Shown: positions 9,431 to 60,431 of the stretch, one piece after another
Position numbering within the stretch: the first letter of the stretch is position 1
How the letters are laid out: each line of letters begins with the position of its first letter
Assembly (NCBI GenBank): GCA_964473205.1
Contig: CAYYOK010000003.1
Coordinates: 22,417-86,416, forward strand
Source: an uncultured bacterium
Lineage (GTDB): Bacteria > Deinococcota > Deinococci > Deinococcales > Trueperaceae
DNA: 64,000 nucleotides
Reading direction: 5' to 3'
Notes under the pieces: generated by a model
The model's input: only the letters and a program-made list of their open reading frames with translations
Database searches by the model: none
What the model was told of the DNA's origin: nothing
Made by a program: the position numbers and the translations under genes

Positions 9431-9431
9431 G

Positions 9432-19051: not shown

Positions 19052-19077
19052 AGATACAGCAGTATACGGCCGTGTAC
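19052..19077. promoter_or_regulatory. phased GTATAC-type operator-like repeat, site A (etfBA promoter)
   Basis: AGATAC agca GTATAC ggcc GTGTAC: three hexamers with a 10-bp period, 29-54 bp upstream of etfB TTG 19023. Confidence 0.55.
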
Positions 19078-19251
19078 CGTACGTTGCGTACTGGATGGTC
19101 CTCGGGCCGCCAGGCTGAGCTACCGCTGCCGTTGAGCTTCATGCCGCGAGCGTGTTCGAGAGTCCGGTTCGTCGGTCGCCCCCCGCCCCCCACGTCAAGC
19201 GGGTTTCGCGCGACCACTCGGTCGAGCGAACCCCGGTATCGACAGGACAGT

Positions 19252-20310
19252 CTAGAAGCCTGAGACGACGATCTGCTTCTCCAGCTCGGGAACCTCGCGG
19301 GTCTCCCAGCTCGCGTCATCCGTCTCGTACACGTTGCAAACACGGGCGCCCGTGTTGACGATCGGCAGCAGCGAAGTCCGAACGATGATCCCGTTGGCCG
19401 GCGCGATCAGCTCTTCTACGACGTCGTCGTAGAAGTCACGGATCTCGGCCAGCAGCTGACCCTTGCGAACGTAGTCGCCAGTCTTCACCTTCAGGTGCGA
19501 CATGCCGCCCTTGGTCGCCGTGACCTCGTAGCGCTTGGTGATGTCGACCTGCATGGCGGGCAGCTCGGGCTCGCCGGGGAGCACGCCGATGGCCTTCAGG
19601 TAGTTGTAGGTTGCGCGGAGCATCATCTCCGGGAACGGGTAGAGGTTGCGCCAGCCCTCACCGGCTTCGATGGCGATCGCTGGGATCCCGCGAGAGCAAA
19701 AGATTCCGGTAGGACCGCCTCTGCGGCCCTTGCGCGTCCAGCGGTGGATGATCTCGTAGCCGCACGCCTTGCCGAGCTCGACGCGACGACGCTCCAGGTC
19801 CTCCGACAGGTCACCGGGCGAGGTGAGCATCGCCCTGGGGTAGTTGATGCTGTCGAGGTGAGTGGCATGGATATCTAGCGCGTGGTCGATGTCCTTGGCG
19901 ATGCAGTCCACTACGGCCCACAGGATGCGCGTGGAGAGGACGCCGTCCTTCTCCGGCTGCGCACCGCCGATGTCGACGACCGTCGGCGCGTCGAGCGGGT
20001 AGAGGCGGTGGCGGTGCACGTAGGCCGGCACATTGATGAGTGGAAGGGCGATGACCGTGCCCGTCATCTGCTCGGGGTCGAGCTCCCGGGCGAGACGCTT
20101 CACGGTGTCCATGCCCGCAGGCTCCTCGCCGTGGACTCCGGATCCCACGAACGCCACGGGGCCGTCACTGCGGCCCTTGATCACGGTGACTGCGAGCTCG
20201 ACCGGCGCGCCGCTCGAGAACTCGCCGACCTTGATGGCGTAACGCTGTTTCGAGCCTCTTGCGACGCTGCCTAGGTCGAAGTCCTCGGGGTTGATTCGGA
20301 GTACCTGCAC
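19252..20310 (-). CDS. succinylglutamate desuccinylase/aspartoacylase (AstE/AspA, M14-like) family deacylase
   Basis: 352 aa. Zn-site region VAFVGSGVHGEEPAG and a C-terminal lipoyl-like hybrid barrel (KVKTGDYVRKGQLLAEI) typical of this family. Confidence 0.75.
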   Translation of the reverse strand: MQVLRINPEDFDLGSVARGSKQRYAIKVGEFSSGAPVELAVTVIKGRSDGPVAFVGSGVHGEEPAGMDTVKRLARELDPEQMTGTVIALPLINVPAYVHRHRLYPLDAPTVVDIGGAQPEKDGVLSTRILWAVVDCIAKDIDHALDIHATHLDSINYPRAMLTSPGDLSEDLERRRVELGKACGYEIIHRWTRKGRRGGPTGIFCSRGIPAIAIEAGEGWRNLYPFPEMMLRATYNYLKAIGVLPGEPELPAMQVDITKRYEVTATKGGMSHLKVKTGDYVRKGQLLAEIRDFYDDVVEELIAPANGIIVRTSLLPIVNTGARVCNVYETDDASWETREVPELEKQIVVSGF

Positions 20311-20344
20311 GCTCGTGCTCCCTTCAGATTGCGATCTGGAGTTC

Positions 20345-20360
20345 GTATACCGCTGTATAC
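20345..20360. promoter_or_regulatory. operator-like repeat, site B (AstE-family gene promoter)
   Basis: GTATAC cgct GTATAC, 35-50 bp upstream of start 20310 (minus strand). Confidence 0.6.
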
Positions 20361-20430
20361 GGCTTTGGCTACTTTAACCAATGCCTCCATCGTCGTCAAC
20401 TGGCTCACTCGAGCCTAGTACGGCAGGTAA

Positions 20431-20456
20431 GTGTACATCCGTGTACAGTCGTGTGC
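20431..20456. promoter_or_regulatory. operator-like repeat, site C (SBP-1 promoter)
   Basis: GTGTAC atcc GTGTAC agtc GTGTGC: three hexamers with a 10-bp period, 58-83 bp upstream of GTG 20514. Confidence 0.55.
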
Positions 20457-20513
20457 TATCTTCAGCCGGTAAACCATTGCGAGTCGAATGAGTCGTTTTC
20501 GAGGAGGCTAGAC

Positions 20514-22085
20514 GTGTCTAGGTATCGGACCCATCCCCCTAAGCTCCGCTCGCTACTGCTTCTCGTGCTAGCCCTCGGACTCCTCCAAGGCGCCATGGCG
20601 CAAAGCGCAGGATCGCCGCTCGAGAACCGCCCGGAGATCCGCGCCCGGCTTCAGTTCGCGCGCGTAGGCGGAGTGTTCGATCCGGCCTACTGGCTGTACA
20701 CCTCGGATTGGTTCGTGTATCCCAACCTGTTCAACTGGTTGGTGCGGTGGGTACCCGGGTCAGGCGGCTACCAAGTAGAGCCCGATCTGGCCGAAAGCTG
20801 GACAGTGAGCGAAGACGGGCGCACCTACACGTTCTACCTGCGAAGGGGTGTGCAGTTCCATCGAGGCTACGGTGAGCTGACCGCGGAGGATGTCGTGTTC
20901 AGCTATACGAGGCAGATGGAAGACGATACGGCTTCCTTCAATTCCAACCTATCCGAGGTTGCGTCGATAGTCGCAATCGATGACTACACTGTCGAGCTCA
21001 CCCTTGAGGAGCCCAATGCAGCGTTCATGGCAGCGGTAGTCGCCTGGAGGCCCGGGCTCATAGTCTCGAAGAGGGCTGTGGAGGAGTTAGGCGCCGAGTT
21101 TCGCGCCCGGCCGATCGGCACGGGCCCGTTCTACCTAGAGGAGATCACCGCGACCGAAGAGGTCGTTCTCCTCTCGCACGACGACTACTTCCGCGGCGCG
21201 CCACAGATCAGCAAACTGACCTTCGTTCACGTGGGAGAAGAGAGCATCGCCCTTGCCGCTCTGCGAAGCGGCGAGCTCGACATCATCTGGTCGCGAGGCA
21301 ACCCGGAGATCGCGGCGGCGCTCCTCCAGGATCCGAACATCACTGCCGAGCGGATCGTCAGGTTCGACTCGATTCAACAGGTCATGTTCAGCCCCAACTT
21401 CGAGATCACTCAGGATGTCCTGGTGCGCCGCGCTCTGGCTCACGCCATCGACACCGAAGCCATCGGCGCGGCGTTCGCGGGCTTGGACGAACCTACACGA
21501 GTGTTGCTAGGCCAGGATCCGGTCGGTGAAGTACCCATGTACGAATACGACCCCCAGTTGGCGCGCGCGCTTTTGGCCGAAGCGGGTTACCCCAACGGCT
21601 TTCCCGTCTCGATGATGTTCCAAACGCGCGAGCCAGAAGCCACGCTCGCGGCGATCGTGGCCGCGAACTGGCAGGAGATCGGTCTGGACGTTCGGATGGA
21701 AGGCATGGATGCGACCTCGACTTTCGATCGCCGGAACAGCTTCGATTTCGAGGTCACCATCAGCTCTGTCGGTCGCCCCGCCGATCTCGATCTGCTTCTC
21801 TCCGATCTGTTCCTCTCTACGTCATTACCTCCCGGAGGCCAGAACTACTTCCGCTACGCCGTCGACGAGGTAGACGACCTACTCTTGGCAGCGCGCCGCA
21901 CGACCGACCCCGACGCGAGAAACGAGCTCTACCACCAAGTCCACGTCAGGGTCATGACGGATCTGCCGATCATACCCCTCTCGTATCAGGTGTTCATGGC
22001 CGCTTGGCGAGACCCGGTCGTAACCATGGAAACCGGGCGCAACAACAACTTCTGGGGCGAGACGATCGAGATCGTTGACCGATGA
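20514..22085 (+). CDS. ABC transporter substrate-binding protein, family 5 (SBP-1)
   Basis: GTG 20514 lies 6 nt after GAGGAGG. Sec signal ...LLQGAMAQ. The family-5 core shared with the eight paralogues includes LVRWVPGSGG..EPDLAESW, TYTFYLRRGVQFHRGYGELTAEDVVFS and PIGTGPF. Confidence 0.85.
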   Translation: MSRYRTHPPKLRSLLLLVLALGLLQGAMAQSAGSPLENRPEIRARLQFARVGGVFDPAYWLYTSDWFVYPNLFNWLVRWVPGSGGYQVEPDLAESWTVSEDGRTYTFYLRRGVQFHRGYGELTAEDVVFSYTRQMEDDTASFNSNLSEVASIVAIDDYTVELTLEEPNAAFMAAVVAWRPGLIVSKRAVEELGAEFRARPIGTGPFYLEEITATEEVVLLSHDDYFRGAPQISKLTFVHVGEESIALAALRSGELDIIWSRGNPEIAAALLQDPNITAERIVRFDSIQQVMFSPNFEITQDVLVRRALAHAIDTEAIGAAFAGLDEPTRVLLGQDPVGEVPMYEYDPQLARALLAEAGYPNGFPVSMMFQTREPEATLAAIVAANWQEIGLDVRMEGMDATSTFDRRNSFDFEVTISSVGRPADLDLLLSDLFLSTSLPPGGQNYFRYAVDEVDDLLLAARRTTDPDARNELYHQVHVRVMTDLPIIPLSYQVFMAAWRDPVVTMETGRNNNFWGETIEIVDR

Positions 22086-22146
22086 CCGAGCACTGTTCGC
22101 TTGGCGTTCAGCGAGTTAGTCAGGCGCTCGGTTGAGGAGAGAGACG

Positions 22147-22827
22147 ATGTTTGGTTGGGAGACGTTCCTGACGGAACGCGACAAGCTGCTGCATGAGGCC
22201 AAGCCGCGCATGGGTACGACCGTGTTCGGGAGCCGTCCGGCTCTAGTCCTGGTCGACTTCTACTACGCTTCGGTAGGACTAGAGAGGTTGCCTCTCTTTG
22301 AGGCGATCAAGCGATGGCCGGCGAGTTGCGGCCTGGAAGGTTGGGCAGCGATCGATCGAACGGCCGAGCTCTTGGCCGTCGCGCGGCGTCATCGGATTCC
22401 CGTGATACACGTGTGCCGATTGACAGGGTTTCCGTCGTGGAACTCGCGTCGCAGCAGGGTGATCGGGTCGGATCCTGTGCCTCGCGAAGACTCGAACCTT
22501 GAGGAGATCGTCGCGGAGGTCGGCCCAGAGCCGGGGGAGCTCGTGGTTCGCAAGGCCGCACCGAGCGCCTTCCAGGGCACGCCCTTGGCCTTCGAGCTCG
22601 TAAGCCGAGGGGTCGATACGATCATCGTCTGTGGCGAGTCGACGAGCGGATGCATCCGAGCAACGGTCGTAGATGGATGCACCAGTGGGTTCCGCGTCGG
22701 TGTCGTCGCCGAGTGCTGTTATGACAGAACAGAAGCCTCTCACTACATGAACTTGTTCGATATGAACGAGAAATACGCCAATGTTATACATCTAGAGGAG
22801 GCAATCACATACTTTGAAGGACAGTAG
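22147..22827 (+). CDS. isochorismatase-family (cysteine) hydrolase, copy 1
   Basis: D-K-C triad context: PALVLVDFYYA, VRKAAPSAF, IIVCGESTSGCIRATVVD. ATG preceded by GAGGAGAGAG. Confidence 0.8.
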   Translation: MFGWETFLTERDKLLHEAKPRMGTTVFGSRPALVLVDFYYASVGLERLPLFEAIKRWPASCGLEGWAAIDRTAELLAVARRHRIPVIHVCRLTGFPSWNSRRSRVIGSDPVPREDSNLEEIVAEVGPEPGELVVRKAAPSAFQGTPLAFELVSRGVDTIIVCGESTSGCIRATVVDGCTSGFRVGVVAECCYDRTEASHYMNLFDMNEKYANVIHLEEAITYFEGQ

Positions 22828-22903
22828 TCATACCAAGTTCGACTACGTGACGACCAATCCGTACGCCCTCGACCGAACCATGCGCCGAAGGAAGTGAGCA
22901 GAC

Positions 22904-24019
22904 ATGGCCCTCCTGCTTGACAGCAACGACATCGAACCGCTACTCACGGCGAAGCTGTGTATCGACGCATTAGACGACGCTTTCCGCGACTATGGCATGG
23001 GCAAAGCGACCACGGCGATTGGGCGAGAGGTCATCCTTACCCGATTGCCGGACAAGGAGGTTCCGGCCGCGGGAGCCCGTAAAGGGCACGCCTACCATGG
23101 GCTCGAGGTTCAGAGCGGATCCGTACCGAGGTATCAGGTCGCCTGTCTGAGGGTTAAGTCTGACATCCTCTATTGGCCAGAGGTTGATGGCGATTACCGC
23201 CGAAAGAAGTATCCCGGAGCCCCAGGCGGGCTCTTCTGCGGCTTCGTGATCTTGTTCGACAACGATACTGGGGCTCCGGTTGCACTCATGCCCGACGGAC
23301 TCATTCAGCGCTTGCGAGTTGGAGCCACCTCCGCGCTGGGAGCCCGCTACATGGCCCCGGAGGACGCCGAAGTGGCCGCAGTTATCGGGTCGGGGAATCA
23401 GGGTGAGTCGCAAGCCATTGCCCTGGCAGAAGTCAGGCCAAACTTGAAGGAAATTCGCATATTCAGCCCTACCAAGAAGAACCGCGAGGACTTAGCAGCG
23501 CGGTTGGACGAGCAGTTGCCGATGAAGGTAGTTCCAGCCGAGTCGGCCCAAGAGGCGGTCAGCGGCGCGCAAATCGTTCACGCCGGGACCAACTCGAGGG
23601 CGCCAGTTGTCAAGGCAGATTGGCTCGACCAGGGCACGCACGTGAGCGTGATCAGCGTCCAGGAGATAGGTGAGGAGATCCTAGGGCGGTCGAACCGCGT
23701 CGGCACCTCCAGACGGTACTCGCCCAAGCAGTCCCACACCGCTATCGCAGACGGTTTTGCGGAAGACGTGCACGAAGACGAGTTCGGCTCTGGCTGGTGG
23801 CACAATCAGGCGCATTGGGACCGGATGGTCACATTGGGCGACATGATGAACGGAAACGCGGTCGGACGGGCCTCAAAGGACGAGAACACGACCTTCATCA
23901 CGAAAGGGGCCGCCATGCAGTTCGCGGCGGTGGGGGCCAAGCTGGCAGAGGAAGCGCGCCGAACAGGGGTCGGAAGAGAGATACCGACCGAGTGGTTCCT
24001 GCAGCCGTACCAGCCCTGA
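22904..24019 (+). CDS. ornithine cyclodeaminase/mu-crystallin family protein, copy 1
   Basis: 371 aa. RVGATSALGARYMA and the Rossmann motif AVIGSGNQGESQ. Paralogue of 26097..27203; both end in WFLQPYQP. Confidence 0.8.
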   Translation: MALLLDSNDIEPLLTAKLCIDALDDAFRDYGMGKATTAIGREVILTRLPDKEVPAAGARKGHAYHGLEVQSGSVPRYQVACLRVKSDILYWPEVDGDYRRKKYPGAPGGLFCGFVILFDNDTGAPVALMPDGLIQRLRVGATSALGARYMAPEDAEVAAVIGSGNQGESQAIALAEVRPNLKEIRIFSPTKKNREDLAARLDEQLPMKVVPAESAQEAVSGAQIVHAGTNSRAPVVKADWLDQGTHVSVISVQEIGEEILGRSNRVGTSRRYSPKQSHTAIADGFAEDVHEDEFGSGWWHNQAHWDRMVTLGDMMNGNAVGRASKDENTTFITKGAAMQFAAVGAKLAEEARRTGVGREIPTEWFLQPYQP

Positions 24020-24102
24020 TAGCGCGAGCGAGCAGCCGGTCGTAGTACGGACGGCCCGAGGGTCTGTGCTACACCCCTTGCGCGCGACGAACAGGCAGAC
24101 GA

Positions 24103-24138
24103 ACACGTGCCGGCGGAACCATCTCCGCCGGCACGTGT
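24103..24138. terminator. perfect 15-bp stem / 6-nt loop hairpin between convergent genes
   Basis: ACACGTGCCGGCGGA accatc TCCGCCGGCACGTGT. Lies between the OCD-1 stop (24019) and the SBP-2 stop (24212). No flanking U-tract on either strand. Confidence 0.6.
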
Positions 24139-24211
24139 CGGTCTGGTCATGTCGCGGGCGCAGTCGAGACTAGGACTGCTCGCGGTTCCGAGGTCTACGC
24201 CTGCTCGGCTC

Positions 24212-25783
24212 TCACTCCTCAAGCTCTAGGCTGAAGCCGTGAAAATCGTTCGTGGCTCCGTTCGTGACCCCGGCGATCGGGGACCGCCACGCGACGACGA
24301 TCTGTGAGTAAGTAAGAGGAAGGACGGAAAGATCCTCCATGATCCTCTGCTGGATGTCGTGCACGACGCTCCTGCGCTCCTCGGTATCGAGCGTGCTGCG
24401 AGCGAGTGCGATCAGGTCGTCTACCGCCGAGTAGTAACCGATGTTCGAGCCTGGCGGGTAGTTCGACGAGTGGAAAGCGTCTTGGAAGACGATGATGGGC
24501 TCGAGCGGCCTTCCCAAGCCTACTAGCGTCACCTGGTAGTCGCCGGTGTTGCGCTGGCTCGTGTACGCGGTGTGCTCTCTGGCATCCCGTACGACGTCGA
24601 TTCCTACGCTTCTCCACTGTTCGACGATTATGTCCGCGAGCAGTGGGAATGGGCTGTCCAGCGAGTAAAGGAACTCGATCCTCAGGCCAGGGAATCCGGC
24701 TTCGGCGAGTAGGGCTCTGGCTCCCTCCGGGTCGTAGGTCACGGTTGGAACGTCAGGGTTCACCCAGTTGCCGTACTGAGGGTTGAGTGGGCCCGTGGCG
24801 GCGGCTTCCATGCCACCTGTCGCCGCCTCGATGAGGTCCCGGTCGATGGCCATGGCCAGCGCACGCCTGACACGGAGGTCGGCCAGCGGCGGATAGTTGG
24901 GGTTGAAGCCGATGAAACGCGTGGTAGAGGTCAGTACCTCTTCCGTAACGAGATCTGGATTCGCCCTGAGCGAGCTCGCGACCTCGGCGTTGCCCCTCGT
25001 CCAGATGAGATCTATCTCGCCGACCTCGAGCGCGTTGGCAGCCACCGTCTCCTCGGTTATGGGGATGAACGTTATGCTGGCCGCGCTAGGCCGCCCTTTG
25101 AAGTAGTCGTCGAAAGCTTCGACGATAACCTCGTCTGAAGCGGTCCTCCGCACGAACTGGAACGGCCCGGTCCCGATCGGGTTCTGAGCGAACGCTTGGC
25201 TACCTAGCTCTTCGAAAGCAGCGGCCGAGATGATGAACCCGTACCTATGCGCCAGCTCTGAGGAGAGGAACGTGGCGTTCACTTCCGACATTACGATCTC
25301 GATCGTGTAGCGATCGACTGCCACGATGTCCTCGACGGCGGCCCACCCAGCGGCCGCTCCCGAGCCCGTCGCCGGATCCCTCAGCCTGTCGTAGCTGAAC
25401 TTGACGTCCTCGGCTGTCAGCTCCCCGTAGCCGCCATGGAACATGACCCCTTGCCTCAGGTGAAACGTGTACCTCAGGCCGTCGTCGCTGACCGACCAAG
25501 CCTCCGCTAAGTCGTTCTCGAGCTCTTCCGTGCCGGGTCGGAACCCTATCAGCCGATTGTAGATGTTGGAGGCTACGAACTCGTCTGGGGCCCTCGCGAG
25601 AAAGGCAGGATCCCAGTGCCCCGGCCCAGAGAACTGCATCCTGACCCTGATGTCCGGTCGTGCCGGATCCTGGGCGGCGACGAATGAAGGTACGAGAAGC
25701 AGCAGGATGAACACGAGACACTTGCGAGCTGGTCTTGGGATGAGGGTATGACGCGCGGTGGCATGGCGGTCTAGCAGAGCCAT
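24212..25783 (-). CDS. ABC transporter substrate-binding protein, family 5 (SBP-2)
   Basis: 523 aa. GGGAGG RBS, signal ...PSFVAAQ. Closest by eye to SBP-3 (RPDIRVRMQFSGPGHWDPAF... versus RPDLRIRLQFSGPGQWDPAF...). Confidence 0.85.
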   Translation of the reverse strand: MALLDRHATARHTLIPRPARKCLVFILLLLVPSFVAAQDPARPDIRVRMQFSGPGHWDPAFLARAPDEFVASNIYNRLIGFRPGTEELENDLAEAWSVSDDGLRYTFHLRQGVMFHGGYGELTAEDVKFSYDRLRDPATGSGAAAGWAAVEDIVAVDRYTIEIVMSEVNATFLSSELAHRYGFIISAAAFEELGSQAFAQNPIGTGPFQFVRRTASDEVIVEAFDDYFKGRPSAASITFIPITEETVAANALEVGEIDLIWTRGNAEVASSLRANPDLVTEEVLTSTTRFIGFNPNYPPLADLRVRRALAMAIDRDLIEAATGGMEAAATGPLNPQYGNWVNPDVPTVTYDPEGARALLAEAGFPGLRIEFLYSLDSPFPLLADIIVEQWRSVGIDVVRDAREHTAYTSQRNTGDYQVTLVGLGRPLEPIIVFQDAFHSSNYPPGSNIGYYSAVDDLIALARSTLDTEERRSVVHDIQQRIMEDLSVLPLTYSQIVVAWRSPIAGVTNGATNDFHGFSLELEE

Positions 25784-25858
25784 TCTGACCTCCCTCGAGC
25801 GGCCGCTTGACGTGTGTCAGCGCCGTCAAACCGGCACCGATCGCTCGCAATCCGGCTC

Positions 25859-25874
25859 GTATACAACCGTATAC
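25859..25874. promoter_or_regulatory. operator-like repeat, site D (SBP-2 promoter)
   Basis: GTATAC aacc GTATAC, 76-91 bp upstream of ATG 25783 (minus strand). Confidence 0.6.
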
Positions 25875-25989
25875 GTTGGTTCAACGCAGAGAGTACAGGA
25901 GTCGACAAAGTCTGTCAAGAATAGGCAGGGGCGGCGATCGGGCGGCCCTTGCAATGCCGTCGCGGTCGAACGCGCGCTGCCACGGCGGG

Positions 25990-26018
25990 TTGACAACTCA
26001 ACGGTCGGTCATTAGATT
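25990..26018 (+). promoter_or_regulatory. sigma70-like promoter TTGACA-N17-TAGATT for the OCD-2 operon
   Basis: TTGACA at 25990..25995, a 17-nt spacer, then TAGATT at 26013..26018, about 80 bp upstream of ATG 26097. The operator-like repeat at 26036..26051 falls just downstream of the implied start site. Confidence 0.5.
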
Positions 26019-26035
26019 GAGACCCACACACGAAG

Positions 26036-26051
26036 ATATACGGTCGTATAC
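26036..26051. promoter_or_regulatory. operator-like repeat, site E (OCD-2 operon leader)
   Basis: ATATAC ggtc GTATAC, 46-61 bp upstream of ATG 26097 and just downstream of the TTGACA-N17-TAGATT promoter. Confidence 0.6.
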
Positions 26052-26096
26052 AGTCATTGAGGCCGACTCGGACACTTGATGAGAGGCAGGAATCGA

Positions 26097-27203: not shown

Positions 27204-27210
27204 CGCGAGT

Positions 27211-28590: not shown

Positions 28591-28621
28591 GAGTGGCTGC
28601 CGGTCACGTTCGGAGGCCCAG

Positions 28622-50427: not shown

Positions 50428-50509
50428 CTAGAAGGACCCTTCTCGCTGCGTCTGGATTCGTGGGAACAGCCTTCGTCGCCCTCGGGCAACGCCAAGCTCG
50501 GAAGGCACT

Positions 50510-50525
50510 GTATACAGCCGGATAC
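50510..50525. promoter_or_regulatory. operator-like repeat, site H (LLM-1/SBP-8 operon promoter)
   Basis: GTATAC agcc GGATAC, 83-98 bp upstream of ATG 50427 (minus strand). Confidence 0.5.
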
Positions 50526-50658
50526 GAAACAGTTGGGAGAGTCTAGCAAGGCTTACCTGCGGTGTCAATTTGATGTCGAATGCGGGTTCGCTACGCGCCC
50601 GCGGCCTCGATCGCCTGCCCGCTCGGCCGCCGAAAGCCTCGTGCCGGCCCAACTGGGC

Positions 50659-51006: not shown

Positions 51007-51030
51007 GAGTTCAGCTCCTTAATGTATTCG

Positions 51031-51046
51031 GTGTACCACCGTATAC
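51031..51046. promoter_or_regulatory. operator-like repeat, site I (RidA promoter)
   Basis: GTGTAC cacc GTATAC, 25-40 bp upstream of ATG 51006 (minus strand). Confidence 0.6.
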
Positions 51047-51148
51047 TAAAACCGAAGGCGGTGTGCGCGAGGCGGGCTCCACGCCAAGAAACGTCCGCTT
51101 CTGCTTGACCCGAGAGCGCCCAAACTGTTAGCCTTGCGAAAGTTTTTA

Positions 51149-51164
51149 GTGTACGACCGTATAC
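51149..51164. promoter_or_regulatory. operator-like repeat, site J (SBP-9 promoter)
   Basis: GTGTAC gacc GTATAC, 39-54 bp upstream of ATG 51203. Confidence 0.6.
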
Positions 51165-51202
51165 GGGCCACTCCGTAGAGCCACGCCTTGAGAGGATGGT
51201 TT

Positions 51203-52774: not shown

Positions 52775-52855
52775 GGACCGAGGTCGGGTCGGTGCCGTCT
52801 GGGCGCCGACCCGACCCGTTATCCGCCTTACGACGACGTGATTCTGGAGGACGAC

Positions 52856-53857
52856 TTGCGATTCGGTGTACGACTTCCCCACTCAGGGCCCTTCGCGTCG
52901 AAGCAGGCTATCGACACCATGGCGACGGCGGCGGAGGCCTTGGGCTACGACGCCGTCATGGTTCATGACCACGTGCAATGGGGCGACTTCGACAGGTACC
53001 ACTTCTACGCCGGCTCCGTCGAGGCCGTCGACAGCCTCGAACGCGCTACCGACTTCTACGAAGCGCACTCCGTGCTCGCGTACCTGGCGGCCAAGGTGCC
53101 GCGTGTGAGGCTGATCCCTGCATCGATCGTGCTCGGCTGGCGAGACCCCACCATGGAGGCGCGCCTCGGCTCCACGCTGCACCACCTGTCGGAGGGGCGG
53201 TACGTGCTCTCGGTATGCGCGGGCAACGTCAAGAAGGACTTCGAAGTGTCCGGCATCCCGTGGGATGAGCGCGGCAAACGCACCGAGGAGTCGCTGAAGA
53301 TCCTGAGTCTGTTGCTGAGGAACGAGGGCCCGGTCAGCTTCAAAGGGAAGTTCTGGGACCTATCTGACGTGGAGCTCTATCCGAAGGCGGAGGGCTTGTC
53401 GATCTGGTACGGAGGTCAGAGCGATGCCGCGCTGCGTCGTACCGCGCGCTTCGCGGACGGTTGGCTGGTAGGCGGATCCGCCGACTTCTACCGCGAGAAG
53501 GTGCCTACGATTCATAAGATCGCCCGAGAGAAGTACGGACGTGACCTCGTTCTGGAAGTGGGTTGCCTCTCGCCGACATCGATCGCCAAGACGGACGCGC
53601 AGGCCGAGGGCGTGGCTGAAGCCACCGTACGCAAGCGGCGTGAAGAGGCCGACTGGCTGAAGCGCACCCACAACCCGCGTGACATCGGCGGCGCCAACCT
53701 GGTCGGTTCTCCCGAGACGATCATCGCGAAGGTGCGTGACTTCGCAGCGGCGGGTGTCGACTTCATAGGCATGGGTTTCATAGGACACACGGTCGAGCAG
53801 GTCGTCGACGAGATGACCTTGCTGGCGGAGACGGTGATCCCGGCTATCAACGGGTAA
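52856..53857 (+). CDS. LLM-class flavin/F420-dependent oxidoreductase, copy 2
   Basis: TTG 52856 lies 5 nt after GGAGG and gives the typical MRFGVRLP N-terminus. Also has YDAVMVHDH and a WYGGQSDAALRRTARFADGW segment. Confidence 0.75.
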   Translation: MRFGVRLPHSGPFASKQAIDTMATAAEALGYDAVMVHDHVQWGDFDRYHFYAGSVEAVDSLERATDFYEAHSVLAYLAAKVPRVRLIPASIVLGWRDPTMEARLGSTLHHLSEGRYVLSVCAGNVKKDFEVSGIPWDERGKRTEESLKILSLLLRNEGPVSFKGKFWDLSDVELYPKAEGLSIWYGGQSDAALRRTARFADGWLVGGSADFYREKVPTIHKIAREKYGRDLVLEVGCLSPTSIAKTDAQAEGVAEATVRKRREEADWLKRTHNPRDIGGANLVGSPETIIAKVRDFAAAGVDFIGMGFIGHTVEQVVDEMTLLAETVIPAING

Positions 53858-53896
53858 CCGTCGGGCACCGACACGAACTTGGCAACTGGAGGCAAG

Positions 53897-54946
53897 ATGC
53901 CACTCACACAGGCTGCGTCCGATAGCGCGTCCCAGCTCACCTCGCCGATTCGCGAAGCGATCTCGAAGGTTCCTCGCGTCAGGTTCAATGACCTACCGAC
54001 CCCCGTACAGAGAGCTGACAGGCTGTCGAGCGAGCTGGGCATCGACCTGTGGATCAAGCGCGATGACTTGGCCGAGACCTTCGGCGGCAACAAGAGCCGT
54101 ACCCTCGAGTTCCGCTTGGCGGAAGCCCTTCAGCAGAACCCCGACCCGTTGATCCTGACCGTCGAGGGTCTCTCCAACACAGCCCCCGCTACCGCGAAGA
54201 TATGCAACAAGCTCGGCGTTCCGCTCGTGTTCGTGCTGCGCGACCAACCCGAGACCACCCTTCAGGGCAATCTCTTCTTGAGTCACCTGTTCGGCATCGA
54301 GATCCGCAGGTTCCACGGCGGTGGCCTGGCAGCATCCAACCCCTTCGTGGATGCGATGATCGAGGAGTACAGGGCGCAGGGCCGCAATCCCGTCGTGTTG
54401 AATCGTGTGCCCAGCTTCTTCGGCTACGGACCTACGTTGGCGTACCTGGAAGCGACCCTCGAGATCTACGAGGCCGAGCCGGATCTCCGCCCCGATCACA
54501 TCTACATAACCTCGACCGGCAAGAGCCAGGCCGGTGTCCTCGCGGCCGACAAGATCTTGGGCTACGGCGCGCGGGTGGTAGGTGTCACGCCACACGGCAA
54601 GCCTAACGCCGAGAAGATCGTCGCCTCGGTCGTAGACGCTGGAGAGAGGATCGGTCGCCAGCTCGCCGTCACGGCAGCCGATGTCCATACTGATCAGAGT
54701 CAGTTGGAAGGCGGTTACGGTGTGATGACGAAGGCCGCAGCGGACGCGCTCCGGCTCGTCGCGCGCACGGAGGGGCTCCTGCTCGATCCTGATCGCACGG
54801 CGAAGACGATGGCTTCGCTTCTGGCAGACGTGGAGAACGGCGTCGTGAAGCCTGGCGACACTGTCGCCTTCTTCCACACGGGCGGCGTCGCTTCTCTGTT
54901 CGCGCACGCCGAGGAGCTGCTCGAGCACGTGGGCGCGACTTGGTGA
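53897..54946 (+). CDS. PLP-dependent ACC deaminase / D-cysteine desulfhydrase family enzyme
   Basis: LPTPVQRADRLS..DLWIKRDDL..FGGNKSRTLEF contains the family GGNKxR PLP-lysine motif. ATG lies 4 nt after GGAGG. Confidence 0.8.
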   Translation: MPLTQAASDSASQLTSPIREAISKVPRVRFNDLPTPVQRADRLSSELGIDLWIKRDDLAETFGGNKSRTLEFRLAEALQQNPDPLILTVEGLSNTAPATAKICNKLGVPLVFVLRDQPETTLQGNLFLSHLFGIEIRRFHGGGLAASNPFVDAMIEEYRAQGRNPVVLNRVPSFFGYGPTLAYLEATLEIYEAEPDLRPDHIYITSTGKSQAGVLAADKILGYGARVVGVTPHGKPNAEKIVASVVDAGERIGRQLAVTAADVHTDQSQLEGGYGVMTKAAADALRLVARTEGLLLDPDRTAKTMASLLADVENGVVKPGDTVAFFHTGGVASLFAHAEELLEHVGATW

Positions 54947-55046
54947 CGTCGGTGCAGCGCCTTCGTCTAAGAGCGCGCCAGCGCTCTACCAGAGCAAGTA
55001 CGGAACCGCGACCGTGCCGGATGGGCGCTGACTGAGGAGGCAACGC

Positions 55047-56483
55047 GTGAGGTCGTATGGCTCCACGATCGGGCGAGACGAGATCAAGACAGGCGAGTCG
55101 ACGCCGGTACTGGACAAGTACTCTCTCGAGCCCATAGCTGCTCTTCACGCCGCGGACGAGGCCACGGCCTCCGCCGCGGTGGAGTCGGCTTTGCGGTCTT
55201 TTCAGAACGTGGAGCTCACGCCCTCCGAACGCTACGACGTGCTCCATCGCGCTGGTCGGCTGATCGAGGAGCGCAAGGACGAGCTGGTCGCCATCATGCT
55301 TCAGGAGACCGGCTTCACAGCGGGAGAGTGCGCCTCGGATGTCGACCGGAGCGTGCAGACGCTCCTCATCAGCGCCGAGGAAGCGAAGCGGCTTCAGGGG
55401 GAGCTGATCCCCATGGCCGGTGCCCGCGGGCAAGAGCACCGGGTGGCCTTCACCGTGCGAGAGCCTCTCGGCGTCGTATGCGCTATCACCCCCTTCAACT
55501 CTCCGCTCAACACGGTGGCTCACAAGGTAGCCCCGGCCATCGCGGCAGGCAACACGGTGGTGGTGAAGCCGTCGCAGCTGGCGCCGCTCTCCACCATCAA
55601 GCTCGCAGAGATCCTGTACGACGCCGGCTTGCCGGAAGGTCATGTGAACGTGGTCCAAGGCAGCGGTGAGGGCGTGGGCTCGTACCTGCTCGCGGACCAG
55701 CGGATCGCGTTCTACGCGTTCACCGGAAGCACTCAGGTCGGCTCGCTGATCAGCCAAGGAGCGGGTCTGCGGCGCACGCAGTTGGAGCTCGGCTCGATCG
55801 CCGCGACCGTCGTGATGGCAGATGCTTCGGTCGACGATGCCGTGCGCAAGGTCGTCGCGGCTGCCTTTCGCAAGGCCGGGCAGGTATGCACGTCCGTTCA
55901 GAGGCTCTACGTCCAGAGCGGTGTCTTCGATGAGGTCTCCCAGATGGTGGCCGAGGCTGCCGCGAGCTTGAGAGTGGGAGACCCTCGAGATCCCGCGACC
56001 CAGATGGGGCCGATGATCAGCGAACGGGAAGCGCAGCGAGTGGAGGCATGGGTTCAGAAGGCCGTCGACGGGGGCGCGACGCTGCACACGGAGCTGAAGC
56101 GCAGGCGGTCGCTGATGTGGCCGGCCGTGCTGAGCGATGTCGGCCCCGACATGGCGGTTCACTGCCGAGAGATCTTCGGACCGGTCGTGGTCTTGTACCG
56201 GTTCGATTCGTTGGACGAGGCGATCGACGGCGTGAACGACTCCGAGTACGGCCTGTCCGCCGGTATCTTCACCAGCGATATCGACTCGGCCTTCAGGGCC
56301 GCACGCCGGATCAAGACGGGCGTGGTCCAGATAAACGAGAGCTCGAGCAGCAGGGTGGATCTAATGCCGTTCGGAGGCACGAAGGCCAGCGGGCTTGGCA
56401 AGGAAGGCCCCCGGTACGCGATGCGAGAGATGAGCGAGGAGCGTCTGATAGTCCTCAATCTTCGGTCTGGAGAGTCTGGGTGA
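55047..56483 (+). CDS. NAD(P)-dependent aldehyde dehydrogenase (ALDH-2)
   Basis: 478 aa. GTG after GAGGAGG. Motifs LELGSIA, GQVCTSVQR and EIFGPV. Confidence 0.9.
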   Translation: MRSYGSTIGRDEIKTGESTPVLDKYSLEPIAALHAADEATASAAVESALRSFQNVELTPSERYDVLHRAGRLIEERKDELVAIMLQETGFTAGECASDVDRSVQTLLISAEEAKRLQGELIPMAGARGQEHRVAFTVREPLGVVCAITPFNSPLNTVAHKVAPAIAAGNTVVVKPSQLAPLSTIKLAEILYDAGLPEGHVNVVQGSGEGVGSYLLADQRIAFYAFTGSTQVGSLISQGAGLRRTQLELGSIAATVVMADASVDDAVRKVVAAAFRKAGQVCTSVQRLYVQSGVFDEVSQMVAEAAASLRVGDPRDPATQMGPMISEREAQRVEAWVQKAVDGGATLHTELKRRRSLMWPAVLSDVGPDMAVHCREIFGPVVVLYRFDSLDEAIDGVNDSEYGLSAGIFTSDIDSAFRAARRIKTGVVQINESSSSRVDLMPFGGTKASGLGKEGPRYAMREMSEERLIVLNLRSGESG

Positions 56484-56494
56484 AGGGTGCATTG

Positions 56495-57988
56495 ATGAGC
56501 CAATCTGCGTGGGACGTGGTGGTCGTAGGAGGTGGGAACGCCGCGCTGTGCGCCGCTCTTTCGGCACGAGAACATGGGTCAGAGCGAGTCCTGGTCCTAG
56601 AGCGTGCGCCCGAGAAGGAGCGTGGAGGCAACAGCCGGTTCACGGCTGGCGCCGTCAGGTTCGCGTTCGATGGGGTCGACCAGATCAGGAAGCTGGTGCC
56701 GGACCTGTCCACCGAGGAGCTGGAAGGTTACGACTTCGGCAGCTACGGCGAGGACCAGTTCTTCGAGGACATGCTGCGCGTCACGCACTACAGGACCGAT
56801 CCGGACCTGGCTAACAAGCTCGTCTCGCAGAGCTACGACGTGATGTGTTGGCTGAAGTCGCACGGCGTGCGGTTCATGCCCAACGGCAGGCAGGCCTTCA
56901 AGGTGGACGGCGTGATGCGCTTCTGGGGAGGCATCGTTCTCGACACGTCGGGCGGCGGGCCGGGCCTCGTGCAATCGCTTTACGACGCGGCGAGGAGCGC
57001 AGGCATCGAGGTGCGGTACGGCGCCAGAGCCCTCGACCTGTTGCGGGAAGGACCGCGAGTAACCGGTGTCCGCGTTCGGAGCGGAGGCGAGGATTCGGAT
57101 GTGACGGCCAAGGCGGTCGTGCTGGCTTCGGGCGGATTCCAGGCCAACAGCGAGATGCGGACACGCTACATGGGCCCGGGCTGGGATCTGGTCAAGGTTC
57201 GCGGTACTCGGTTCAACACCGGCGACGGTGTGCGCATGGCGCTCGCCGCCGACGCGATGCCCTGGGGCGAGTGGTCGGGCGGACACGCCGTCTTCTGGGA
57301 TCAGAACGCCCCCGCGTTCGGCGATCTGGCGGTCGGCGACGGCTTCTCGAAGCTCAGCTATCCTCTGGGGATCCTCGTCAACGTGGCGGGCAAGCGTTTC
57401 GTGGACGAGGGCGCCGATTTCCGCAACTACACCTACGCGAAGTACGGCAGGGAAGTGCTCAAGCAACCGGGAGCTACGGCCTGGCAGGTCTTCGACTCCA
57501 AGGTAGAGAGCCTGCTCAGGGACGAGTACCGGATCAGGCAGGCGACACGAGTCAAGGCCGACACCCTCGAGGAGCTCGCGAACAAGATGGAAGGCGTCGA
57601 GCGCAAGGAGTTCCTCAGGACGGTGGACGAGTACAACCGAGCGGTCCAGGTCGACGTGCCGTTCGACCCGACCGTGAAGGACGGTCGCGGCACGGAGGGT
57701 ATCTACCCGCCCAAGTCCAACTGGGCCAACACCCTCGACGCGCCGCCTTACGAGGCTTTCGCCATCACCTGCGGGATCACGTTCACTTTCGGCGGGCTTC
57801 GCATCACCGCCGACGAGGCTCGCGTGCTCGATATCGAGGAGCGGCCGATCGAGCACCTGTTCGCGGCGGGTGAGCTCGTCGGCGGGCTCTTCTACAACAA
57901 CTACCCGGGCGGCACGGGGTTGACCGCGGGAGCGGTGTTCGGGCGTATCGCCGGCCGCTCAGCGAGCGAGGCGGCGAAGCGCAGCTGA
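56495..57988 (+). CDS. FAD-dependent dehydrogenase, tricarballylate dehydrogenase (TcuA)-like
   Basis: Start at MSQSAWDVVVVGGGNAALCAALSAREHG...ERGGNSRFTAG, which is TcuA-like. The upstream 149 codons of the track ORF overlap ALDH-2 and are discarded. Confidence 0.75.
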   Translation: MSQSAWDVVVVGGGNAALCAALSAREHGSERVLVLERAPEKERGGNSRFTAGAVRFAFDGVDQIRKLVPDLSTEELEGYDFGSYGEDQFFEDMLRVTHYRTDPDLANKLVSQSYDVMCWLKSHGVRFMPNGRQAFKVDGVMRFWGGIVLDTSGGGPGLVQSLYDAARSAGIEVRYGARALDLLREGPRVTGVRVRSGGEDSDVTAKAVVLASGGFQANSEMRTRYMGPGWDLVKVRGTRFNTGDGVRMALAADAMPWGEWSGGHAVFWDQNAPAFGDLAVGDGFSKLSYPLGILVNVAGKRFVDEGADFRNYTYAKYGREVLKQPGATAWQVFDSKVESLLRDEYRIRQATRVKADTLEELANKMEGVERKEFLRTVDEYNRAVQVDVPFDPTVKDGRGTEGIYPPKSNWANTLDAPPYEAFAITCGITFTFGGLRITADEARVLDIEERPIEHLFAAGELVGGLFYNNYPGGTGLTAGAVFGRIAGRSASEAAKRS

Positions 57989-58146
57989 GGCGCAGCGACC
58001 GTTCCACAGCGGCGGCTTGCGGCATGAGAGGAGGCGTAGCGGCCGCCAGGGAGGGGCGACCCCGCCACGCGATGCACACCGACGACCGTTGGTCGACCAC
58101 GACCACCGAGAAGCGATCCTAGTCACACCGAACTGGAGCGACTCAT

Positions 58147-59322
58147 GTGAACCGTGCCGGCAGCCGACGAGCCTTGTGGGTTCTCTGCGCCAGCACGGCT
58201 TTCATCTTCGCGACCAAGGCGATGCTGACGCCGCTCGTGCCGTTGTTCAGCCTCCAGCTCGGGATGCCCGTCTCGGTGGTGGGTCTTCTCGTGGCGCTCT
58301 CGTACGTTCTTCCGCTCTTCCTCGCCCTGCCTGTCGGCAGCCTCGTGGACCGCCGCGGCTCGGCCGGCGTCATCACCGTAGGCGCCGCGCTCATGGCGCT
58401 CGGTCCCATGACTGTGGCGTTAGTGCCCAGCATCATCGCGCTGGCGGCCGGTCAGGTGATCGTCGGTCTGGCGCACCTTCTGGTCGGTCTCGCCACGCAG
58501 AGCCTGGTCGCCTCGCTCTCTACCGGCGTGCACCGCGAGCGCGATTTCGGATGGTACACGACCTTCGCCTCGGCCGGCCAGCTCGTAGGCCCTCTGCTCG
58601 CTGGCATCTTGGCGGACGGTTTCGGGTTCACAGCGGCCTTCGCCGTGGCAGGAGCTCTGTCGGTAGTGGGAGTGTCGCTCGCGCTGCTGCTGCCGAGGAA
58701 CCGCAGGGCGGAGGACACGACCGCGGGCCTGGGGGCCAACCTCTTGAAGGTCCGCTCGCTGCTCGGTAAGCCCGGGATTCATCTCGGGATCGTGGCGAGC
58801 GCTAGCGGGATGTTCGCCATGACGGCGTTCCAGGCGTTCCAACCTGCGTATCTCGAAGGCTTGCAGTACACCGCCACGACCATCGGGCTCTTGCTGTCGA
58901 TCAAGAGCCTCTCTTCGATGCTGATCAGGCCTTTCACGCCGGCGGTCGTCCGGTCGTTCGGCGGGAAGCTGAACACGCTATCGGCGATGATGCTGATCAT
59001 CGCCGTCACCATCGGGGTTACCGGCTACTTCTCGTCTTTCGTGCCGCTGGCGCTGCTCTCCATCGGCTTCGGCATAGGGTTCGGCATCTCGCAGCCTGTC
59101 AGCATGGTGACGGTGATCGAAGAGAGCGATCCGGGCAACCGGGGCTTCCTCCTGGGGCTGCGCCTTACCGGCAACCGCATCGCTCAGCTGGTCGGCCCGC
59201 TGATCGTCGGTTTCGTCGCCGATGCTGGCGGGTTCGGACCGGCGTTCCTCTCGGGTGCGCTGGTGGTCGTCGCCGGAAGCCTCATCGTGCGAGCGCTCAG
59301 GCCGCGGAACCCGGTGACCTGA
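58147..59322 (+). CDS. MFS transporter
   Basis: 391 aa with about 12 hydrophobic helices and a GSLVDRRGSAG loop-2/3 motif. Confidence 0.75.
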   Translation: MNRAGSRRALWVLCASTAFIFATKAMLTPLVPLFSLQLGMPVSVVGLLVALSYVLPLFLALPVGSLVDRRGSAGVITVGAALMALGPMTVALVPSIIALAAGQVIVGLAHLLVGLATQSLVASLSTGVHRERDFGWYTTFASAGQLVGPLLAGILADGFGFTAAFAVAGALSVVGVSLALLLPRNRRAEDTTAGLGANLLKVRSLLGKPGIHLGIVASASGMFAMTAFQAFQPAYLEGLQYTATTIGLLLSIKSLSSMLIRPFTPAVVRSFGGKLNTLSAMMLIIAVTIGVTGYFSSFVPLALLSIGFGIGFGISQPVSMVTVIEESDPGNRGFLLGLRLTGNRIAQLVGPLIVGFVADAGGFGPAFLSGALVVVAGSLIVRALRPRNPVT

Positions 59323-59323
59323 G

Positions 59324-60328
59324 CTATGCCTTCGCGGAAGAGGGGCGCAGCTTAGGGATGACATCGCGGGCGAACGCCTCGATGAACTCGATCTGGTTCC
59401 GCCCGACGTTGTGCAGGTGGATCTCGGTGAACCCGAGGTCGACGAACTGCTGGATGTGCTCGCGGTGCTCGTCGAGGTCGGGGGAGATCAGCATACGGTC
59501 CTTGAAGTTCTCGATGCGCACCAGGCGGGCGATGGCCTCGAAGTCCTCCGGCGACCTGATGTCCTGCTTCGGGAACGCCATGCCGCCGTTGGGCCATTGG
59601 TCCAGCGCGTTCGCCTCGGCTCGCTCGCGCGTGGCGTCCCACGACAGGTGAAGCTGGAGCAGCTTGGGCATCGTGTCCGGATCCTTACCGGCTTCCCTCG
59701 CTCCGTCCGCGAACTTCTGCAGCAGCATCCTGAGCTTGGCCGGCGCGGCTCCCGGCAGGATGATGCCGTCACAGTTGGCGCCCGTCCAGCGCGCGGTGAC
59801 AGGACCCGCCGTAGCCACCAGGATCGGGATCGGCTGCTCGGGAACCGTCCAGAGCTTGACCCTTCCGACCTTGAAGTAGCCGTCTTCGCGATGCTTGATG
59901 ACCTTGCCGGTGAGAAGCACGCGGATGATCTCGGTCGCCTCTTGCATCATCTTCAGTCGCACGTGGGGCTCGGGCCATGGGCCGCCCACGAAATGCTCGT
60001 TGAGCGCCTCTCCGCTCCCGAGGCCGAGCCAGAAGCGACCTGGGTACATCGCCCCCAGCGTCGCTGCCGCCTGTGCGACCACGGCTGGATGGTAACGAAA
60101 CGAGGGGCAGGTGACCCCGGGCCCGAAGCTCAGGCTGGAGGTCGCTTCGCCCAGGGACGCCATCCACGACCAGACGAACGCGCTCTCGCCCTGCGCGGGC
60201 ACCCAAGGCTGGAAGTGGTCAGCGGCCATCACGCCGGTGAAGCCCACGCTCTCCGCCTTGGCGCAGTACCTCAGCAGCTCAGTCGGCCCGAACTGCTCAA
60301 GCGCGGCTGCGTATCCGATCGTCGTCAC
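59324..60328 (-). CDS. LLM-class F420-dependent oxidoreductase, glucose-6-phosphate-dehydrogenase (Fgd)-like family
   Basis: 334 aa. MTTIGYAAALEQFGPTELL..., ADHFQPW and RFWLGLGSGEALNEH are characteristic of the Fgd-type LLM subfamily. GTG after GGAGGAGG. Confidence 0.75.
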   Translation of the reverse strand: MTTIGYAAALEQFGPTELLRYCAKAESVGFTGVMAADHFQPWVPAQGESAFVWSWMASLGEATSSLSFGPGVTCPSFRYHPAVVAQAAATLGAMYPGRFWLGLGSGEALNEHFVGGPWPEPHVRLKMMQEATEIIRVLLTGKVIKHREDGYFKVGRVKLWTVPEQPIPILVATAGPVTARWTGANCDGIILPGAAPAKLRMLLQKFADGAREAGKDPDTMPKLLQLHLSWDATRERAEANALDQWPNGGMAFPKQDIRSPEDFEAIARLVRIENFKDRMLISPDLDEHREHIQQFVDLGFTEIHLHNVGRNQIEFIEAFARDVIPKLRPSSAKA

Positions 60329-60415
60329 GGTTCCTCCTCCGTAGCCATTGTCTCCGAGTCAGCTTCTCCGAGGCCCTCGCCCTGCGCCGCGCCCACATGA
60401 GGCGCTACAGCTAGC

Positions 60416-60431
60416 GCGTACATTCGTATAC
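60416..60431. promoter_or_regulatory. operator-like repeat, site K (divergent fgd-like / cofE region)
   Basis: GCGTAC attc GTATAC, about 90-105 bp from both divergent starts (60328 minus, 60524 plus). Confidence 0.5.

Follow-up and report, generated by a model that had tools for sequence, protein, structure and literature searches.

Which protein coordinates the expression of a large gene island for uptake and catabolism in an uncultured, Trueperaceae-related bacterium, and through which operator does it act? The question is raised by a 64,000-nucleotide stretch of contig CAYYOK010000003.1 (the whole stretch that was analysed, hereafter the window), in which the palindromic hexamer GTATAC and close variants of it recur two or three times per site, separated by four nucleotides, in front of the genes of a 41-kb island. 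A first-pass annotation of this DNA listed eleven such sites in eight intergenic regions and attributed them to one factor, with a GntR/FCD regulator as the prime candidate. The evidence presented below leads us to propose, with a probability of roughly 70%, that these phased elements are the operators of one factor, most likely the adjacent FadR/FCD-type GntR protein encoded at 61380-62150, which would repress about ten transcription units and be released by an effector.

A phased hexamer in front of the island genes

Genes in the window were called from the third-position G+C signal and annotated with Pfam; intergenic DNA amounts to 5,319 of the 64,000 nucleotides (~8%). GTATAC occurs 14 times, as compared with 2.85 ± 1.56 times in dinucleotide-preserving shuffles, in agreement with the earlier expectation that it should be rare by chance in this DNA. 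The degenerate pair GYRTAC-N4-GYRTAC has nine matches, at seven loci, two of which are palindromic, whereas 0.05 would be expected. When the spacer between two GYRTAC hexamers was varied from 0 to 30 nucleotides, N4 gave seven matches and each other length none or one. Thus, N4 is the only enriched spacer, and the exact 10-bp period described in the first-pass annotation is real.

With up to three mismatches allowed in the twelve hexamer positions of GTATAC-N4-GTATAC, 17 matches were found in the window, and 16 of these are intergenic; the sole coding match, at 42979, has three mismatches. Equal abundance inside genes, which would have spoken against a regulatory element, is not what is seen in the window. 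Apart from the coding match, these positions collapse to eleven sites in eight intergenic regions, which are precisely the sites listed before (Table 1). Between 19 and 60.5 kb, each intergenic region that should hold a promoter has at least one of them, and the convergent or short intra-operon gaps of the island are without a site. All eleven are located 23-114 bp upstream of likely start codons. The intergenic position claimed earlier is therefore retained, but the range of 25-130 bp given with it was corrected after new starts had been assigned to etfB and to SBP1, the gene for the first substrate-binding protein (SBP) of the island. For etfB, the better start is TTG 19023, with a GGAGG Shine-Dalgarno sequence (MKVLTIIKQVPD), and for SBP1 it is GTG 20514, where a GAGGAGG Shine-Dalgarno sequence is followed by a signal peptide. 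In both cases, the start of the longest open reading frame (ORF) appears to collide with the site.

The consensus of the eleven sites is GTRTAC-nRYC-GTATAC, in which G1, T4, A5 and C6 of the hexamer are invariant or nearly so (at least 10 of the 11 sites). A third hexamer is present in phase at 19052, 20431 and 60416, and the other sites contain two. With a position weight matrix (PWM), the best strand of each of the eleven sites reaches 19.3 bits or more, and 17.1 bits are obtained for the third-hexamer register at 20441, as compared with 11.3 bits for the best position outside the sites in the window (14035) and 12-14 bits for shifted registers within sites, a separation that is partly circular because the matrix was made from the same eleven sites. 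The first-pass annotation described the motif as a phased direct repeat. The phasing stands, but a pair of 10-bp near-palindromes placed end to end, (yc)GTATAC(gr), fits the consensus better than a simple direct repeat does.

Two other features of the sites were considered and discarded. A constant YC before the second hexamer on the plus strand (six sites versus none, with five uninformative) is not meaningful, since it follows the orthologous promoter in the inverted island of a related locus (L004, see below) and the sample is small. A terminator-like hairpin at 19056-19073 is an artefact of the palindromic operator hexamers, and probably there is no terminator at this position.

Conservation of the sites in related loci

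Orthologues of the GntR/FCD protein with 55-98% identity were found on metagenomic contigs and contigs of metagenome-assembled genomes. In all their loci, the gene order GntR-cofE-LLM3-MFS-FAD-Aldh-PALP-LLM2-SBP is kept, where LLM stands for a luciferase-like oxidoreductase, MFS for a major facilitator superfamily transporter, FAD for a TcuA-like FAD dehydrogenase, Aldh for an aldehyde dehydrogenase and PALP for a pyridoxal phosphate (PLP) enzyme. A scan of genome contigs with the GntR protein, whose peptide patterns were fitted too closely to the window, gave relatives of at most 35% identity, which served as controls only. A search of metagenomic contigs with the orthologue alignment gave two short orthologue contigs, and the other 78 loci that it found were assigned to the controls, which comprise 84 loci around distant GntR homologues. 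Loci L097 and L098 were reached by an independent start from orthologues of the AstE-like deacylase of the island. The PWM of the window sites penalises differences in the spacers and missed a real site in L098; for the final tally, it was replaced by a spacer-independent count in which up to two mismatches in the twelve hexamer positions were accepted. By this count, sites are present in nine of nine orthologue loci (15 in 93 kb) versus 5 of 84 control loci (5 in 920 kb), which corresponds to a roughly 30-fold difference in density. Conservation upstream of orthologous genes, which the first-pass annotation had proposed to look for, is thus found, and together with the confinement of the motif to promoters it argues for a single factor and a single regulon, as had been suggested.

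The same genes are preceded by sites in different genomes. In L004, this applies to RidA (L004:1314, identical to the window site), etfB (L004:3142) and the AstE-like gene (L004:8269), and in L097, strong sites are located upstream of the AstE orthologue (L097:6077) and of an LLM1-SBP-isochorismatase-CMD-permease operon (L097:133). The operator between cofE and LLM3, which is found next to the GntR gene in every locus of the GntR orthologues, is conserved in seven genomes; it is present in L001, L004, L010, L011, L012 and L098, and in L098 it takes the form of a triple hexamer upstream of LLM3. In an alignment of this intergenic region (Alignment A2), the hexamers GCATGM, GTATAC and GTAYGC are invariant or nearly so, and the spacers and flanks have diverged. 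The operator thus shows a clear footprint of fixed hexamers between drifting spacers.

In three lineages (L001, L013 and L014), a site is located directly upstream of the gene for the GntR orthologue itself. Between this site and the annotated GntR start, L001 (9846-10000) and L013 (1014-1180) have a conserved stretch in common, with GAGG...ATGCCTG(C/T)CGA at its beginning, which might represent a short leader ORF or an N-terminal extension missed in the annotation. In L004, an 86% relative, the island is rearranged: the genes for AstE, SBP, permeases, ETF (electron transfer flavoprotein) and RidA are found directly beside the GntR gene, and the operators have moved with the genes. Fragments of transposase and integrase genes (DDE_Tnp_1 and rve; 1-331 and 8716-9764) adjoin the GntR gene in this locus.

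The candidate regulator

The protein encoded at 61380-62150 contains a GntR domain (PF00392; 62.9 bits versus a cutoff of 27; residues 46-107) followed by an FCD domain (PF07729; 104.2 bits versus a cutoff of 24.3; residues 117-240), and its best homologues in the PDB (7xp0, 7u5q, 6z74 and 3c7j) are all FCD proteins. It is the only regulator that is syntenic with the island in all related loci, and Pfam annotation revealed no regulator gene inside the 41-kb island. Across eleven orthologues, little or no variation is seen at residues S80-R81-T82-P83-V84-R85, R67, E70 and G103-G104. The window protein aligns here to S44-R45-T46-P-V-R49 of the FCD regulator Atu1419 (see below), with the same recognition helix, equivalents of R31 and E34, and a Gly-rich wing. 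Synteny, the upstream sites in three lineages, the precedents for GTATAC and these residues all point to the GntR/FCD protein, which thus probably deserves the place of prime candidate that it was given at the outset. The histidines H172, H192 and H216 are the same in all orthologues and would fit the metal site of an FCD domain. The ligands of such domains are usually carboxylates, which in many cases are bound via a metal.

The longest ORF encodes 256 amino acids, with 45 residues ahead of the winged helix-turn-helix domain, and the contig record (P0121) has a later start and 247 amino acids. In the upstream 45 codons, the G+C content at the first, second and third codon position is 0.52/0.55/0.61, versus 0.70/0.46/0.80 in the core. 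Because the third-position signature of coding DNA is missing from these codons, the true start is probably the ATG at ~62018 (MAENVYQ...). The extension is not conserved in the orthologues, and the 86% orthologue was called without it.

Comparison with known FCD and GntR systems

The founder of the family, GntR of Bacillus subtilis, is a substrate-released repressor of a catabolic operon. Its operator, a single extended palindrome found in its own operon only, is reported to have a TTGTATACAA-like core that fits the general pattern (N)yGT(N)xAC(N)y. The core of the hexamer described here fits this pattern as well, specifically as GTATAC.

DipR of Alcaligenes faecalis JQ135, a GntR/FadR-family repressor, has six target promoters in the dip cluster, where it binds to 5'-GTATAC-3' until dipicolinate releases it (PMC11472048). 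Like the candidate in the window, it is an FCD-type GntR protein encoded together with a catabolic cluster and has GTATAC as the core of its motif (GWATAC for DipR); its six promoters belong to one cluster, in which divergent pairs have two sites (PMC11472048). The DipR sites overlap the region from -35 to +1, and many genomes have retained the motif in their version of the cluster (PMC11472048). In contrast, DipR binds to single hexamers in ~23-bp footprints, whereas two or three hexamers at an exact 10-bp period are found here, and DipR regulates its own gene, whereas the GntR gene in the window has no upstream site. The systems also differ in their targets: DipR controls the dip genes, and the targets here are SBP, OCD, LLM and F420 genes. 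With eleven sites and ~34 genes, the predicted regulon is larger than that of DipR.

Atu1419 of Agrobacterium fabrum (FCD/VanR group; PDB 6Z74/6ZA3) represses catabolic genes from sites that overlap the -10 region. Its dimer binds the 10-bp palindrome ATGTATACAT, and in the crystal structure of the complex with DNA, Arg45 contacts G3 and Thr46 contacts A5 (PMC7797058). The protein is only distantly related to the one in the window (65 bits), and the flanks of the hexamer are different, i.e., yc-GTATAC-gr here versus AT-GTATAC-AT for Atu1419. Furthermore, Atu1419 forms a tetramer that loops the DNA between palindromes 109-190 bp apart, whereas the palindromes abut at 10 bp in the window.

The third case is NanR, the FCD-type sialic acid repressor of Escherichia coli. 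Three NanR dimers bind cooperatively to phased GGTATA hexamers in the operator (GGTATA)3, with one dimer per hexamer and a requirement for at least two repeats at fixed spacing, and the repressor is released by the substrate (PMC8012715). The presence of two or three hexamers at a fixed short spacing, here always N4, is common to both systems. However, the hexamer of NanR lacks palindromic symmetry and recurs every 8-9 bp as opposed to every 10 bp here.

Proposed mechanism

From the motif, its position and the systems discussed above, we infer how the GntR protein would bind to the sites and in which stoichiometry, how it would repress transcription and what type of effector it would respond to. 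Extended by 2 bp at each end, GTATAC becomes a 10-bp palindrome that would accommodate one GntR dimer. One dimer per hexamer would be the simplest stoichiometry, because the hexamer itself is a perfect palindrome and sites with three hexamers exist; one monomer per hexamer was rejected, as it leaves both the internal symmetry of the hexamer and the three-hexamer sites unexplained. Since two or three units abut one helical turn apart, the same number of dimers (or else a dimer of dimers) would line up along one side of the helix, and by analogy with NanR, such side-by-side dimers would probably bind cooperatively. If the protein indeed lacks the N-terminal extension, the contacts between the dimers would be made differently from those in NanR.

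A role as a repressor is suggested by the location of the sites, which are predicted to overlap or sit just downstream of the region of the -10 element and the transcription start site. The operator at 20345 is located at approximately +4 to +19 from a predicted sigma-70 promoter, TTGACG-17-TAAAGT, and the one at 26036 at approximately +11 from a predicted TTGACA-17-TAGATT promoter (25990-26018), both promoters being consensus matches only. In L012 and L001, near-consensus promoters (TTGACT-17-TACACT and TTGACT-17-TAGACT, respectively) are found immediately upstream of the operator. From these positions, the GntR protein would repress about ten transcription units for uptake, with nine family-5 SBPs, and for catabolism, and the inclusion of ETF, an Fgd-family LLM and CofE in the regulon would supply F420-dependent enzymes. 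Binding of a small molecule, presumably a carboxylate, to the FCD domain would release the repressor. As the island encodes TcuA-like, MmgE/PrpD and OCD proteins, an amidase, a deacylase, a member of a PLP-dependent deaminase family and RidA, its substrates may be nitrogen-containing (poly)carboxylates.

The proposed local repressor regulon with a GTATAC operator is textbook-style and well supported, and it entails no new principle. Noteworthy are the strictly phased architecture of the array and the unusually large size of the local regulon, which includes genes for cofactor supply. It is a tentative and rather doubtful proposition that the operator architecture is new to the FCD family, with two or three complete GTATAC palindromes abutting at one helical turn, a stack of dimers on the same face without a NanR-like extension, eleven operators for ~34 genes under one local repressor, and nine SBP paralogues coupled, together with a new aminopolycarboxylate- or opine-like route, to a dedicated supply of cofactors by CofE, an Fgd-family F420 reductase and ETF, in a Deinococcota lineage whose F420 metabolism has hardly been studied. 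If the GntR regulon is confirmed, an operator, a regulator and about ten transcription units would be defined for an uncharacterised 41-kb uptake and catabolism island. The nine SBP paralogues, the F420-family oxidoreductases, CofE and ETF would then constitute one functional unit, and fewer candidate substrates would have to be considered. The system would also be the third experimentally tractable case of GTATAC recognition by FCD regulators, and its 10-bp hexamer arrays would be a simple means to test how FCD dimers cooperate on DNA.

Alternative explanations

The sites could represent a single regulon of which the binding protein is encoded elsewhere, i.e., another GntR/FCD paralogue or a member of another family that reads palindromes, with the adjacent GntR protein regulating something else. 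Several observations leave room for such an unlinked factor and weigh against the GntR protein or against the details of its proposed action. There is no site within ~330 bp upstream of the GntR gene of the window (62000-62346 scanned); since sites are present at this position in L001, L013 and L014, autoregulation is apparently not universal but lineage-dependent. The regulator and the island always co-occur in the sample, so that the GntR protein cannot be separated from a co-evolving, unlinked factor, and the motif was scanned over the 64 kb of this genome that are visible plus short contigs only. In L011, a LysR-type gene adjoins cofE. The residues S-R-T-P-V-R occur widely in GntR-family proteins and are not sufficient to specify GTATAC; they are therefore consistent with the model but not discriminating. 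A NanR-like N-terminal extension as a possible mediator of cooperativity is doubtful, considering its lack of conservation and of a coding third-position signature, and the promoter calls that place the sites are consensus matches only. Finally, homologues of up to 54% identity are mostly without the motif (L005), and L099 carries only a weak version of it. In the latter locus (100-200), TTGACG-17-TATTCT is followed by GTATAC-TAAA-GAATTC before the gene for a 43%-identical GntR/FCD protein that heads a related operon, Aldh-AstE-SBP-permeases-LLM-LLM-SBP; more distant relatives may thus share the 10-bp phased design, with a change in the second hexamer. Nevertheless, an unlinked factor is unlikely, given that the GntR protein is the only regulator conserved beside the island in every locus, that sites directly precede the gene of its orthologue in three lineages, that the island interior contains no other regulator gene and that a GTATAC core is a documented operator of FCD-type proteins.

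It is much less probable that the motif is not an operator at all but a promoter element common to these genes, what is left of a duplicated promoter cassette or of a mobile element, or the result of restriction-site bias. Many hexamers do overlap TAnnnT strings resembling a -10 element, but their 10-bp spacing does not match the geometry of -35 and -10 elements. Many paralogues in the island have arisen by duplication; however, when the core was masked, the 80-bp flanks of the sites showed no mutual similarity except where windows physically overlap, and the long repeats of the island are all within paralogous coding regions. Hence, each site is maintained on its own, and none is a copy of a larger repeat or element. 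Avoidance of restriction sites would not yield phased intergenic pairs, and strict N4 phasing with conservation of the hexamers but not of the spacers across genomes is typical of protein-binding sites.

A period of 10-11 bp is typical of winged-helix regulators of the OmpR/PhoB type, and a response regulator of this type (4495-5181) and a histidine kinase (5213-6565) are encoded 14 kb from the first site, but activation of the island by this pair from tandem direct repeats, already ranked below the GntR protein in the first-pass annotation, is very unlikely: a head-to-tail half-site does not need to be a perfect palindrome, as the consensus hexamer is, no response regulator is found in any motif-bearing orthologue locus, the pair is located in a housekeeping flank of 70% G+C without a nearby site, and, judged by the predicted -10 element and transcription start site, the sites are at this region or downstream of it rather than upstream of -35 as expected for a class I or II activator.

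The predicted operators and the genes of the island

With the adjacent FadR/FCD-type GntR protein as the most likely regulator, the features of the predicted regulon are as listed in Table 1.

Table 1. Predicted island, operators and candidate regulator in the window (strand is that of the downstream genes or of the gene itself).
Feature	Position	Strand	Sequence	Score (bits)	Location relative to start	Genes or remarks
Predicted regulated island	17296..60328					~33 genes, ~10 transcription units; cofE, just beyond, is also predicted to be regulated
Predicted operator	19052..19077	minus	AGATAC-AGCA-GTATAC-GGCC-GTGTAC (three hexamers)	23.3	28 bp upstream of likely etfB start TTG 19023	etfBA
Predicted operator	20345..20360	minus	GTATAC-CGCT-GTATAC	25.3	34 bp upstream of AstE-like gene	AstE-like deacylase (19252-20310)
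Predicted operator	20431..20456	plus	GTGTAC-ATCC-GTGTAC-AGTC-GTGTGC (three hexamers)		57 bp upstream of likely SBP1 start GTG 20514	SBP1-isochorismatase-OCD1
Predicted operator	25859..25874	minus	GTATAC-AACC-GTATAC	27.2 (best site)	75 bp upstream of SBP2	SBP2 (24212-25783)
Predicted operator	26036..26051	plus	ATATAC-GGTC-GTATAC		24 bp upstream of OCD2 (TTG 26076)	OCD2-MmgE/PrpD-SBP3-permease-permease
Predicted operator	32271..32286	plus	GTATAC-CGTT-GGATAC		42 bp upstream of SBP4	SBP4-amidase-SBP5-CMD
Predicted operator	44470..44485	minus	GTATAC-CGTC-GCATCC	19.3 (weakest)	114 bp upstream of SBP7	SBP7-SBP6-TPP enzyme-Aldh (TPP, thiamine pyrophosphate)
Predicted operator	50510..50525	minus	GTATAC-AGCC-GGATAC		82 bp upstream of LLM1	LLM1-SBP8-isochorismatase-CMD-permease-permease
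Predicted operator	51031..51046	minus	GTGTAC-CACC-GTATAC		24 bp upstream of RidA	RidA (50659-51006)
Predicted operator	51149..51164	plus	GTGTAC-GACC-GTATAC		23 bp upstream of SBP9	SBP9-LLM2-PALP-Aldh-TcuA-like FAD enzyme (possibly also MFS)
Predicted operator	60416..60441	minus and plus	GCGTAC-ATTC-GTATAC-TACT-GCATGC (three hexamers)		between divergent genes	Fgd-family LLM3 (59324-60328, minus) and cofE (60524-61294, plus)
Candidate regulator	61380..62150	minus				GntR family, FadR/FCD subfamily; Pfam, PDB homologues, orthologue alignment, synteny

The gene content of the island was derived from Pfam and NCBIfam. The etfBA genes (17296-19023, minus strand) form its left end. It encodes nine binding proteins of the SBP_bac_5 family (family 5), whose genes share patches of 60-78% DNA identity, and two pairs of permeases (30365-32164 and 44599-46456). 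No ABC ATPase gene was found by Pfam annotation in the island, including the span of the nine SBP paralogues (20451-52774), and the ATPases for its transporters must be encoded elsewhere or shared. The enzymes comprise two OCD/mu-crystallin proteins, two isochorismatase-like hydrolases, two CMD proteins, an MmgE/PrpD protein, an amidase, a TPP enzyme, an AstE/AspA-like deacylase, RidA and two aldehyde dehydrogenases; a third aldehyde dehydrogenase is encoded just outside the island (62347-63795). The island further encodes an MFS transporter, in addition to the ETF, and the PALP protein is a PLP enzyme of the D-cysteine desulfhydrase/ACC deaminase family (ACC, 1-aminocyclopropane-1-carboxylate). 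Most of the island enzymes are without an equivalog assignment in NCBIfam, and hence no specific substrate can be named.

The TcuA-like FAD dehydrogenase scores 580.8 bits in NCBIfam versus a cutoff of 369. Its longest ORF (56048-57988) overlaps the gene for the preceding aldehyde dehydrogenase by more than 400 nucleotides. As the FAD domain begins at residue 156 and the orthologues have 497 amino acids, the real start is located near 56495-56513.

Three luciferase-like oxidoreductases of the island belong to F420-type families. LLM3, of the F420-dependent glucose 6-phosphate dehydrogenase family, passes the cutoff of TIGR03557 but not that of the Fgd equivalog, and CofE scores above its equivalog cutoff in NCBIfam. 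A standalone cofE gene is thus found together with three F420-family LLM genes in a Trueperaceae-related bacterium. To our knowledge, F420 metabolism is little documented in Deinococcota. A gene of the 2-phosphosulfolactate phosphatase family is located just outside the window (L094, 1906-2613).

Composition and surroundings of the island

The G+C content is ~61-63% over the island (~18000-56000) versus ~70% in the left flank, and the orthologous cluster in L001, a 76% relative, has 71% G+C. These values suggest that the island was acquired, or that it evolves under a different composition in this lineage. The left flank consists of housekeeping DNA with ald, truB, an intein-containing dcd, mltG and alaS, and an RpiR-linked sugar cluster occupies the DNA that follows the window on the right. 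No site was found in the motif scan of the 19-kb left flank, nor in the ~8.7 kb that come after the GntR gene on the right, ~7 kb of which are beyond the end of the window. As the flanks are without sites, the regulon is compact and bounded on the right by the GntR gene.

The best named relatives of TruB, a single marker protein, are from Trueperaceae (Truepera radiovictrix, ~60% identity). By these relatives, the source is an uncultured bacterium of Deinococcota and not an actinobacterium, as the F420 genes might suggest. The dCTP deaminase-like gene in the left flank (6612-8423, minus strand) is interrupted by an intein: in its 603-amino acid product, the Pfam domain DCD is found in two stretches, together with Intein_splicing.

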